This document shows, in pieces, positions 47,501-50,500 of a DNA stretch of 64,000 nt (position 1 is the stretch's first letter; each line of letters opens with the position of its first letter). The stretch lies in sequence record PZ674596.1; one strand, given 5' to 3'. Made by a program: the position numbers. The DNA comes from a phage.

Positions 47501-50500
47501 AGATACAAAGTGGTATGAGCGTGCAACAGAGTGTGCGAATGAGACGATTATTCTGTCTGGTGGCCGCGTAGCGTTTGTCGAGCCTGACGTAAATCTGGGT
47601 CAGGTAGAAGTAAACATCAACCCAGGTGGCAGTATGCTCGTTGTTTTTCGAGGATTCTGTCAGGACGCTGGGCACTCTATAAGCAAGATCCCTTTGGACG
47701 TCATGAAAAGTCTGGGAGGGTATGATCCTGCGAATGTGATCAGGAAAAAAAGACCATCAAAGAAGGCTGCTTAGTTTGTTCTGGCGTCTGTAATTAGCCT
47801 GCTTCTGTATATATAAATAACTACATATTAATTATTAATATACGGAAGCAGGCAGCTTTGTATCAGAGACTCCAGACCTGAACATCACTACAGAATCCAC
47901 TAGAACCCCTTCCCAGACGCTTTAAAATCGATTTTATGAACCACTTTAAGGAAACCAACATGTCATACCCGACTAATGTCGTTGCGCTCGTAGAGAGCGA
48001 TTTTCTGGCCCAGGCTCGTGAAATGATGAAAGATCGTGAGCAGGCTTTCAACTTGTACGAATGGGCAATTAAGTGCTTGCATCTTGGCGAGCATCGCGAA
48101 CTTGTTGAACAGCTTTTAGGTGAGTTGATCAATGAGGTGTTTGCCTTGAATGTTCAACTACATGGTAGAGAAAATAATCAATCACAATGATAGATAAGTA
48201 CAAACTATTCATAAAGTGAATTGTAAGTGCTAAGATCTGATAGTTTCCAGTCGTAGACTGGAGACTCGACCTGATGGGTGGGGGTAAGCGTCACTGGCGT
48301 CAGGTTTAAAAAAGCTCACTACCAGCGTAGAACTGGTGCCGTTTAGGTGTCGGGGAAGGGGGAACCAAAGTGAGCAGAGACAAGGGTCACTTTATGATTG
48401 TCGAGTCTGGGGTGTTTCGAGAGGTTGAATCCAGTACTCCCCTTCATAAAGTGTGGGAAGATCTCGGTTCTGGGGTGCTGTCATCCATAACTTCCCAAGT
48501 CTAAGCTGGCAGTAGACTTAGACCATAACTTTTCAGGTTATGAAACGACCAGGTTGGTGAGAGATTTTTATACTCACCTCCCTGGGAGAGTATTACCTGA
48601 AAAGACAACCTCTCACTTCGTTCGAGGTGAACTTCACTCACTTCGTTCGTTCAGTTCAGGTTTATAAAAACCTGTTCTGGGAAGTAATTTGTTTATTTTA
48701 ATAATTATTAACACGCACGCGTGTGCGCACGCGCGAGGAAAAATCGGCGCGGCGCTTGATTCAGGAGTTTATATGACGACGAAGACACCAGCCCGATCGC
48801 AAGCAAAAACTCGCAAAAAAGCCAAAAACAAAAATTCCCCCCGCACCAATCCCACAACGCCTGTCGTAGAGTTCAATCCCCAGCTTAAAACCGTGAAAAT
48901 CTTTAGTGATGGCTCTTGCCTTAAAAATCCGGGTGGCCCGGGCGGTTACGGTATCGTTCTCCAGTATCGTGGTGAGGAACGCGAGTTCTCAGATGGTTTT
49001 CATAGCACCACCAATAACCGCATGGAGATGATGGGGGCACTTATCGGGCTGGAGCGTTTGAAATATCCATGCAACGTTATTTTGCACTCTGATAGCCAGT
49101 ATCTGAAAAACGGCATGACACAGTGGATGAAATGGTGGAAACGCAATGGATGGATGACTTCTGACAAAAAACCGGTAAAGAATGTTGATCTGTGGAAGCG
49201 TCTGGATGAGGCCGCAAGTCGACATAATGTTCGCTGGAAGTGGGTTAAAGGTCACGCCGGGCATCGTGAAAATGAAATATGTGATCGACTCGCGAAGATC
49301 GCAGCTTTTTCAGCAGCAGATATGCCTCACAAGAAAGATATTGGTTTTGTTTATAATAAATAGTAAGTAAGTGTTTACCTATCATTTTAAATCATGTATC
49401 TTATCGGCGTCAGGATGACAATGTGTCGGTAAGACACAGTTCCAGGATGGAACGAGAAAGGCGGCTGGCAATCGCCAGCCGCAACTCTTTCTGACACTGG
49501 ATGGAGTCCACATGGCACGTCAAACCTATTTCACTTCTGTAACTAAACGCCCTCGTTCTTTACGTCAAATTTTGGCCGAATTATTTAGCGGTCGTGTTAT
49601 GTCACGCCTTGAAGAACTAGAGACTACCGTTCGGTTGCTGAATGAACGTTTAGATAATCAAGCGTCAGTTGTTGCGAACGTGGGGGCGATTGTTGCCTCT
49701 GGCTCTTCACGCGAAGCGAAAAATGCACGGCCTTTAGTGAAGGAGAAAAACAACAAGGACAGTTCGAATGGAAAATTTTCAAAGAAAGAGGCTGAAACCA
49801 ATGGCCTACGTTCTCATTATAGTTTCACTGGCGACGGTAGCCGTTCCAGCCGGTCAGAGCCTTTTGATGCCGGATTCATCCATCACCACACCTTCGTCGA
49901 CGACAATTACCACCACTCCAGTGGAGCGTCCTGTCACTCTGGATGGGATGGCGGTGGATGCGATACCTCAAGTTCATCCAGTTACTCAGGATCATGCTGT
50001 GACTAAGGCGGTTGTATGAACTGGTTTTCAAATCACTTTGGAAAAATTTGGCTGGCAATTCTTGCCCTTATGGCCGCCGGTTGGGTATCGAACATTATAA
50101 AACTTGTTTGCTCTGGCGATCTCCAGTTTCAGGCTGGCATGACCTTGGCTCGTGTAGTTGGGATTTTTGTTTTTCCAGTTGGTTCGGTACTTGGTTATTT
50201 CTGACGGCTGTTAGTGCATATGCATTGACCATCTCTGCGTAAGCAATTTATGTAATTAGAAAACAACTTGTTTTGACAAATAATAAAAGGAAAGCACATG
50301 TTAGGTTTCTTCAAAAAGAAAACTCGTAAAGCTGTTATCGAAGTCAAAAAAATGGAGAACCGTGATGCGGTTGAGGCCACCGTGTGGGGCGCGTACATGA
50401 TCTCCTATGCCGACGGCACATGTGACGCAAAAGAAATTGCCATTCTTGAGAAGACAATTGCAGCTCTGCCTGCGTTTTCTCCGTTTGCTGGTGAAATTGC

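Follow-up and report, generated by a model that had tools for sequence, protein, structure and literature searches.

A probable large structured non-coding RNA gene upstream of RNase HI in SSU5-like phage-plasmids

Introduction

To our knowledge, structured RNAs of bacteria and phages that exceed ~400 nt and carry many conserved helices are rare. Those large classes that are understood are ribozymes or central ribonucleoproteins (RNPs). GOLLD, ROOL, HEARO and OLE are large structured RNAs that lack open reading frames (ORFs), GOLLD and ROOL being associated with phages or prophages, and several of them (GOLLD, ROOL and OLE) are still unexplained. Other RNAs of mobile elements that invite comparison are ColE1 RNA II, whose length is comparable to the ~450 nt discussed below, and the c4 RNA of phage P1, in which a motif is present twice. 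Here we analyse a gap between two genes in a 64,000-nt part (the window) of an SSU5-like phage-plasmid of Escherichia coli (PZ674596.1), and propose that most of this gap is, as seems likely on the present balance of evidence, a stand-alone gene for a ~445-nt (~48243-48690), highly structured + strand non-coding RNA (ncRNA) from a family outside Rfam.

Clinical E. coli, Klebsiella, Salmonella Typhi and Enterobacter commonly carry phage-plasmids of the SSU5/pHCM2 type, and the searchable literature reports no ncRNA in the SSU5 or pHCM2 phage-plasmids. The gap is 582 bp long and runs from the TGA (48188-48190) of an ORF for a 76-aa protein to the ATG (48773) of the gene for RNase HI. Over 47800-49400 the window is 99.6% identical to 'Escherichia phage CMS-2020a', 98% identical to PhiR41_1 and Cyrano (pLF82), 81% identical to Salmonella phage SSU5 and ~78% identical to Klebsiella phage-plasmids.

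Results

A nearly invariant core in a non-coding gap

We profiled identity in 200-nt sliding windows over 11.6 kb of the locus, using SSU5 and Klebsiella pJN2-26 as comparison sequences. A core at 48265-48687 reached identities of 0.94-0.95 to the two, against locus medians of 0.69 and 0.65. In an alignment with Cyrano, SSU5 and pJN2-26, ~48265-48687 was nearly invariant, and the flanking coding sequence differed at 1 in 4-5 bases. The original prediction, made from the window alone, had singled out the gap as a candidate ncRNA and had made its case depend on conservation in related elements; the region is indeed conserved in them, and its core is the identity maximum of the entire 11.6-kb locus, a point that the prediction had not made. 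Our scans also agree with the earlier claim that no plausible ORF spans 48191-48772: the longest ORFs inside encode 30-46 aa, none of these is conserved between subgroups, and across 18 diverse homologues no ORF of at least 25 aa, on either strand, is common to all subgroups.

Full-length copies of the RNA are carried by 687 PLSDB plasmids, whose hosts include Klebsiella, Escherichia, Enterobacter, Salmonella, Citrobacter, Cronobacter and Shigella (nearly all of these plasmids being typed as non-mobilizable). Twelve phage records have it too, as do 232 of the 5,426 complete E. coli genomes (~4%), where RefSeq has no annotation beneath the match. GTDB species representatives added two Kluyvera contigs and no other relatives, pattern scans of IMG/VR returned the same phage-plasmid contigs and nothing further, and in a 17-mer scan of metagenomes 3 of 120 stretches among the matches listed were genuine, the remainder being chance. 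As judged from these collections, the family is confined to SSU5-like phage-plasmids of Enterobacteriaceae.

A search of Rfam, which the original prediction had proposed, returned no family for the gap. Over 48100-48850, the 4,227 covariance models of Rfam 15 gave no match at the gathering threshold or with E up to 10, and the best score, 21.5 bits against a cutoff of 56 bits, was at chance level. The models covered include GOLLD, ROOL, HEARO, OLE, C4, RNAI, hok/sok, group I and II introns, RNase P, transfer-messenger RNA (tmRNA) and 6S. The window's only matches at gathering level were three tRNAs at 10877-11120, and a tRNA/tmRNA scan of the window found nothing beyond the tRNA cluster at 10.9-11.6 kb.

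Since the main clade varies little, we sought distant relatives through homologues of the 76-aa protein and the contigs that carry them. This gave two diverged subgroups of the RNA, represented by L167 (fetched loci bear L numbers) and by an Enterobacter hormaechei type (L164, L165, L166 and L168). Core identity to the window is 75% in L167 and 57% in L164, and in L164 the small-protein gene and Dam are 60% and 66% identical to their counterparts in the window.

A covarying fold assigned to the + strand

An alignment of 28 distinct main-clade sequences (A5), folded with RNAalifold, gave a consensus of 138 pairs in 19 helices in which 99.5% of cells are standard pairs. Thirteen pairs are compensatory in A5, against 6.0 ± 1.5 in column shuffles (0 of 500 reached 13) and 1-5 in slid controls, in which the 3' partners were shifted by 1-3 columns. 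When the same structure was scored on 18 diverse sequences that include the L167 and L164 subgroups (A7), there were 30 compensatory pairs, where shuffles gave 14.2 ± 2.5 and slid controls 3-10; the number of compensatory cells was 88, against ~20. The minimum free energy is -155 kcal/mol for the + strand versus -131 for the - strand, better by 24 for the former, and many G-U pairs of the RNA are invariant. Because such invariant G-U pairs would be A-C mismatches on the other strand, and because the + strand folds better, the RNA was assigned to the + strand. The predicted elements of the fold are these:

48265-48687, + strand: conserved core of the structured RNA, ~17 helices, delimited by identity, covariation and folding energy
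48242-48266, + strand: P0, 5'-terminal hairpin (-15.3 kcal/mol, z = -4.5), 3 of 6 pairs compensatory
48268-48306, + strand: P1, long 5' hairpin, compensated, including flipped pairs (C:G to G:C and U:A to A:U)
48314-19/48370-75, + strand: P2, in which L167 drops one base on each strand
48388-48523, + strand: central domain, with compensated helices 48388-97/48444-53, 48454-60/48491-97, 48473-77/48482-86 and 48499-48523
48419-48427, + strand: GAGAGGUUG, hairpin-loop 5' strand of a putative pseudoknot pairing, a constant 9-mer with variable flanking loop bases
48529-48604, + strand: second long hairpin, with compensatory support in A7
48606-48614, + strand: CAACCUCUC, 3' strand of the putative long-range pairing, an inverted repeat with 48419-27
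48612-48649, + strand: two copies of CTCACTTCGTTCG, which flank or form the hairpin 48620-48648 and are both invariant in the main clade
48615-48685, + strand: 3' domain, with hairpin 48651-48680 supported in A7

The sequence of P0 is wholly different between subgroups and the hairpin is always kept, L164 and L167 having different hairpins at the same place, a pattern that fits a protective 5' stem-loop. In the putative 9-bp pairing between 48419-27 and 48606-14, 98% of cells are paired, and L167 carries one G:C to U:A double change. A nested helix that RNAalifold had proposed instead (GAGA..GGU with ACCUCUC) was rejected, being broken in L167, where on reading the alignment the rival long-range pairing is compensated. 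We likewise rejected a pairing of AUAACUUCCCA with UGGGAAGUAAU, which is not kept in L164, in favour of UGGGAAG/CUUCCCA, which carries three compensatory pairs. A covariance model of the central domain (R1) finds the window, L167, L164 and L168 at E = 1e-24 to 1e-31.

The repeated units that the original prediction described near the 3' end of this fold are real: there are exactly two copies of CTCACTTCGTTCG, one at 48612-48624 and the other at 48637-48649; L167 and L164 have the latter only in a degenerate form. Searched through the window with up to 2 mismatches, the motif gave three matches, within chance, with no extra copy or complement beyond chance, and we regard the 13-nt repeat as a local feature of a variable 3' domain.

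Putative promoter, RNA ends and an operator-like palindrome

Around the core lie the following predicted signals:

48208-48236, + strand: putative sigma-70 promoter, with -35 TTCATA (48208-13), a 17-nt spacer and an extended -10, (TGc)TAAGAT (48231-36)
48191-48207, no strand assigned: degenerate copy of an AT-rich palindrome (TAAGTA at 48195-48200), directly after the stop of the 76-aa gene and adjoining the -35
48688-48710, + strand: AT/U-rich spacer, variable in sequence and length in the alignment, the probable RNA 3' end

The -35 keeps its TT, and the -10 its TA..AT, in 28 of 28 main-clade sequences, the spacer between them varying. Read by eye, the elements at this place are TTTACC-17-TAACAT in L164; the -10 of L167 is likewise TAACAT, and its -35 is weaker. 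From this arrangement we infer a transcription start at ~48243. At the other end, the conserved core closes with GGGAAGUAA (48687) and is followed by the U-rich spacer, within which, at ~48690-48710, the RNA probably ends.

At the site of the degenerate palindrome SSU5 has a perfect GGTAAGTACTTACC, and the palindrome, next to the -35, looks like an operator. An AT-rich palindromic motif of this kind, (G)ATAGGTAAGTA..TACTTACCTAT, recurs in the window at 99, 3533, 4414, 10110, 17570, 23153, 26677, 32132, 41534, 47150, 48195, 49364, 53415 and other sites. GTAAGTA is present 17 times where 4.3 ± 2.1 copies are expected, and for perfect TAAGT-N(1-9)-ACTTA inverted repeats the count is 5, with 0.37 expected. 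Several of the copies lie directly after stop codons or 5' of starts or promoter-like hexamers, those at the RNA promoter and on the 3' side of RNase HI included; the recurrent motif looks like the operator of a phage-plasmid regulator.

Published reads over the core in a lysogen

The only annotation anywhere that falls on the RNA is CYRAN_81, a 44-aa 'hypothetical protein' of Cyrano that equals window 48370-48504, inside the core. It can be followed in the RNA sequencing data of Misson et al. (S1 Table; PMC9928086), obtained from E. coli LF82 carrying Cyrano, a 97% identical phage. In overnight lysogeny broth (LB), normalised reads were 113 and 121 for CYRAN_81, ~9.5 for the upstream gene CYRAN_80 and ~8.4 for the RNase H gene CYRAN_82 (PMC9928086), so that CYRAN_81 has ~12-14-fold more reads than its flanks in LB, and ~40-fold more in macrophages, in a library whose strandedness is unconfirmed. 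The log2 values for CYRAN_81 are 6.8-6.9 in 'BLB' (overnight LB), 9.0-9.3 in 'B1', 8.2-9.0 in 'MB1' and 10.3 in 'MB6', and those of its neighbours are 2.6-5.8 in all columns and about 5 at MB6 (PMC9928086); as the table leaves its labels unexplained, we took 'MB1' and 'MB6' as 1 h and 6 h in macrophages from the design of the paper. Relative to overnight LB, the CYRAN_81 signal is ~5-fold up at 1 h post transfer ('B1') and ~10-fold up at 6 h in macrophages ('MB6'), and the flanks barely change. The rise suggests regulated expression. With CYRAN_81 high and its neighbours at background, the signal is therefore a discrete, abundant and condition-dependent one between silent genes.

A transcript, on which the original prediction had also made its case depend, is thus seen as abundant published lysogen reads over the region with the flanks at background. 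Together with the conservation, the covariation beyond controls and the conserved promoter, these reads back the earlier reading of the gap as a candidate ncRNA, which in its strand asymmetry and lack of a conserved ORF also has the general marks of a structured ncRNA.

The locus, its cargo slot and a second RNA in a sister clade

The locus lies in a block of replication and nucleotide-metabolism genes. The order, all on the + strand, is Dam methylase (47181-47774), the 76-aa protein, the gap, RNase HI and more small genes; a RepA-type replicon gene lies ~17 kb upstream of the gap, amid genes for helicase, primase, ligase, Pol III alpha, SSB and recombination. The two genes that border the gap are:

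47960-48190, + strand: 76-aa helical protein, phrog_5343 (a PHROG without a function), found 5' of the RNA in every fetched locus
48773-49363, + strand: RNase HI, 196 aa with a basic N-terminal tail (Pfam RNase_H, E = 1e-44)

The 76-aa protein matches no Pfam family, Rop (PF01815) included, at E<=0.01. Its AlphaFold 2 model is helical (predicted local distance difference test 72) and has no PDB match with E below 1 in Foldseek.

The link to RNase HI that the original prediction implied by its description of the gap is not obligatory. Among 139 fetched and partly redundant main-clade loci with enough downstream sequence, in which RNase HI was sought within 400 nt, 12 (~9%) have other genes 3' of the RNA, as does the L164 type. 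In L074 (Kluyvera; 4391-6000) the next genes are two uncharacterised ORFs (269 and 200 aa) on the opposite strand, in L148 (4310-4756) the cargo slot holds a 148-aa reverse-strand ORF, and in the L164 type (3829-4916) it holds a 200-aa protein and a Tad2-like (anti-Thoeris) protein, the former with a sub-threshold Pfam match to DUF7557 (E = 2.5e-4, under the curated cutoff). The RefSeq 'Rnase H' coding sequence (CDS) of SSU5 (NC_018843 79147-79911; L002 5842-6606) starts ~170 nt before the conserved ATG and so extended crosses the tract described below and the spacer and enters the 3' domain of the RNA; its start is probably mis-called. The window's maximal ORF at this place, 48689-49363 with a TTG start, holds the same trap.

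A sister Klebsiella clade, here clade B (STEFF_14-type; NZ_CP055187, that is L072, and L146-L152), has the same synteny and a gap of 581 bp. Its small protein is 46-54% identical to that of the window and its RNase HI, where present, 51% identical. The clade-B gap is not alignable to the window RNA by blastn with word size 7. Within its own clade, however, this gap (L072 3348-3928) is conserved and structured; over 5 sequences the predicted ~450-nt RNA has 15 pairs with compensatory changes, and it matches nothing in Rfam and carries no annotation. Run on clade B with filters off, R1 scored 1.9 bits (E about 1), the default filters were also negative, and the predicted architectures differ; by these comparisons the clade-B RNA is a second unannotated family, unrelated to the window RNA. 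A Moellerella phage-plasmid has the small protein and neither RNA.

A purine-pyrimidine tract at the junction of RNA gene and cargo

Between the spacer and RNase HI lie two further features:

48711-48735, no strand assigned: alternating purine-pyrimidine, GC-rich, quasi-palindromic tract of 25 nt, 76% GC
48736-48772, + strand: RNase HI 5' leader, with GAGG, an A-run, a GC box TCGGCGCGGCGC and a Shine-Dalgarno sequence AGGAG (48763-67)

The tract had been the centrepiece of the original prediction, and its description is accurate: ACACGCACGCGTGTGCGCACGCGCG is a perfect 25-nt alternation with overlapping palindromes. No other alternation in the window is as long, the runner-up having 14 nt, and none of 200 first-order Markov simulations produced a run of that length (mean of the longest runs 16.5, maximum 24). 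It also has the proposed potential for Z-DNA or cruciform formation in so far as this is read from an alternating GC-rich run that has dyad symmetry and a length of at least ~12-14 bp. Thus the tract is real and unusual, but its rank as the key feature of the gap did not hold up, for it lies outside the conserved core, is length-variable or partly deleted, and as + strand RNA folds with a stability like that of shuffled sequence (z = -0.6). Shorter versions occur in L108, L113 and L115, L164 is reduced to CGCGCG, and L167 has 27 nt. A helix with 2 compensatory pairs can form across the A-run between the tract's 3' half and the GC box; the A-run (48739-48743) has 5 A in the window and 5-9 among close relatives, and the switch of cargo falls just 3' of tract and A-run (window 48744 onward). 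Because of its unstable length, its unexceptional RNA fold and the pairing of its 3' half with the leader GC box, we treat the tract as separate from the RNA: it is a hairpin-forming, slippage-prone GC-rich element at the junction of RNA gene and cargo and in the RNase HI leader. Length polymorphism of A-run and tract could alter RNase HI expression. A DNA-level role for the tract alone, for instance in the exchange of cargo, we consider unlikely. For a recombination site, another option of the original prediction, the position of tract and A-run at the cargo boundary is the one hint.

Elsewhere in the window, 10877-11574 holds a cluster of four tRNA genes (Asn-GUU, Tyr-GUA, Thr-UGU and Ser-UGA), at the matching place of which the Cyrano annotation has Asn, Thr and Ser only. 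Adjoining the cluster is CYRAN_43 (Cyrano OV696614 40268-40822, ~window 10-10.5 kb, - strand), annotated as a 'hypothetical protein'. In the LF82 table its reads are 723-fold over the prophage background, by far the highest value of the element (PMC9928086).

Discussion

We propose that in the plasmid (lysogenic) state the RNA would be made from a promoter of its own, that the 5' hairpin and compact fold would make it stable, and that its three-dimensional shape probably lets it act in trans, whether as a scaffold or decoy for proteins or possibly as a catalytic RNA, giving it a shape-dependent role in lysogeny. We favour a structure-based action in trans because constraint in the main clade extends over the whole 420 nt and is not limited to a short seed, because the fold and not the sequence survives in the diverged subgroups, because the RNA has no complementarity of at least 13 nt to the rest of the 64-kb window (12-mers being at chance level), and because downstream genes that face the RNA cannot have it as their leader. 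The RNA is probably not an antisense RNA, an RNase HI leader or a replication primer.

Several points weigh against this account. Within the main clade most helices are invariant, and the 94-95% identity found there may partly reflect recombinational spread of the module rather than constraint on each base, since in more distant relatives the RNA has diverged no more slowly than the genes beside it. The promoter matches the consensus weakly and falls below the threshold of a simple scan, for which reason we count it as putative, and a scan of the + strand found no canonical terminator for the RNA. The LF82 reads were counted over the 135-nt annotated ORF only, in the library of unconfirmed strandedness. 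Ends, strand and role of the RNA are computational predictions, and the step to a shape-based action in trans draws on negative evidence, the screen for antisense targets having taken in 64 of the element's ~110 kb and none of a host genome.

Each of the alternatives accounts for part of the observations. The RNA could be a cis element, that is, a leader, attenuator or riboswitch-like sensor of the cargo genes, or else a stable 3'-untranslated fragment of the 76-aa gene: it shares its orientation with both neighbours, its level shifts with growth condition, the contrast between an abundant RNA and RNase HI at background would fit termination or attenuation between the two, and the hairpin after the 76-aa gene has no U-tract in the main clade, so that read-through is possible. 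However, in L074-type loci the next genes face the RNA from the opposite strand, which makes a leader role impossible there, the RNA has a conserved promoter of its own, the upstream gene is ~12-fold below it, and no terminator/antiterminator pair with a U-tract was found; we judge a cis role improbable, if the least so of the alternatives. An antisense RNA for lysogenic immunity or regulation, like P1 c4 or P4 CI, would repress lytic or replication genes through exposed loops such as the repeated CACUUCGUUCG, and would suit the expression in lysogens, a motif present twice as in c4, the different RNA in the slot of the sister clade (as expected for immunity specificity) and a promoter that adjoins a recurrent operator-like palindrome. 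We nevertheless rate this marginally lower again, since the window offers no complementary target of the length given above, the repeat has no further copy or complement beyond chance and loses its second copy in L167 and L164, and the 420 nt are conserved entire, with no short seed, in an RNA 4-6 times longer than known immunity RNAs. Somewhat more doubtful still is a primer or R-loop origin like ColE1 RNA II, in which the structured, G-rich transcript would hybridise to the template over the AT-rich spacer and GC-rich tract downstream, be cut by the phage RNase HI and prime DNA synthesis. RNase HI adjoins the RNA in most relatives, the ~450 nt are similar to the length of RNA II, the 5' half is G-rich (GC skew +0.26 to +0.29), expression occurs in the plasmid state, and an AT-rich stretch followed by a GC-rich tract lies 3' of the RNA. 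This model is disfavoured because RNase HI is dispensable as a neighbour, the RNA being kept where unrelated genes, some on the opposite strand, replace it (host RnhA could substitute); because the RepA-type replicon is ~17 kb off in an element with its own replisome genes; because 48250-48700 has no RNA I-type - strand promoter at scan threshold, the sole nearby - strand promoter-like site (48249-48220) being directed away from the RNA; because the cumulative GC skew has no turn at the locus; and because the 76-aa helical protein has neither a Rop-like nor any other fold match.

The two remaining alternatives deny that the conserved gap is an RNA gene. If the tract were a Z-DNA or cruciform site for recombination, nicking or protein binding, as the original prediction had it among its options, the conservation of the gap would reflect a DNA function. 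It is true that the tract stands out statistically, that most relatives retain it and that it sits exactly at the boundary of the cargo difference, with a length polymorphism typical of unstable repeats; but the core lies 25-450 nt away from it, has compensatory changes and strand-specific G-U pairs for which a DNA site has no need, and is retained where the tract is cut (L108, L113 and L115) or reduced to CGCGCG (L164), so that this reading has very little probability in our view. The least credible is a small-protein gene with the 44-aa CYRAN_81 ORF as its expressed product. CYRAN_81 is annotated in Cyrano and listed as a moron 12-fold above background (PMC9928086), and GGGGGA stands 8 nt ahead of its GTG start. 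Yet the frame has an in-frame stop in Klebsiella pJN2-26, where near-identical sequence continues past the stop, the ORF is missing from L116, L120, L135, L136, L167 and the L164 type, and conservation reaches 100 nt 5' and 180 nt 3' of it without a third-position pattern; we give it next to no weight. A type I toxin-antitoxin mRNA of the hok/sok kind was rejected as well: a conserved hydrophobic toxin ORF was not found, and the 44-aa ORF, interrupted in Klebsiella, is by reading not hydrophobic.

The reading as a stand-alone structured RNA bears on how these elements are annotated and studied. The RNA is unannotated everywhere, or else misread as a 44-aa protein or absorbed by an over-extended RNase H CDS, and its locus is one of only a few in the element with strong expression in the carrier state, and shows a further rise in macrophages. 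LF82 with Cyrano, together with SSU5, offers a tractable E. coli system for the role of a large phage RNA in lysogeny, the non-homologous RNA in the slot of the sister clade is a natural swap experiment, and both RNAs could serve as markers in annotation pipelines and phage-plasmid typing schemes. Non-homologous structured RNAs in one slot would imply an exchangeable RNA-based function. We raise as a possibility, and tentatively, that the RNA of the window represents a new class of large structured RNA put to use by temperate phage-plasmids in lysogeny, a ribozyme or RNP core that would act on host machinery or defences and is encoded in a dedicated 'RNA slot'.

As matters stand, the RNA is a new family in a known category, that of large structured RNAs of mobile elements without an assigned function. 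It resembles GOLLD, ROOL, HEARO and OLE in its several hundred nt, many covarying helices, long-range pairing, phage-type carrier and non-coding nature. Unlike them, it matches no Rfam model even with E up to 10, is restricted to phage-plasmids of Enterobacteriaceae, accumulates in lysogeny and has no associated nuclease or transposase gene. With ColE1 RNA II it shares the setting of a plasmid-borne, folded transcript of ~0.5 kb that has a G-rich segment and adjacent genes for RNase HI and a small helical protein, whereas its RNase HI is dispensable as a neighbour, no RNA I promoter was found, the RepA replicon is elsewhere and the small protein shows no Rop-like fold match. Like P1 c4 and P4 CI, it is an ncRNA of the prophage or plasmid state among early genes, with a short motif present twice and a clade-specific sequence, but it is 4-6 times longer, conserved throughout, without a target in the 64 kb and without a match to the Rfam C4 model. 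Our favoured working model is a parallel with CsrB/CsrC and 6S, which are likewise abundant, stable and condition-regulated and with which it would share an action by shape or motifs. It differs from CsrB/CsrC in that a manual count gave about six GGA motifs in 450 nt, roughly the chance number, and from 6S in lacking an open-promoter mimic and an Rfam match.

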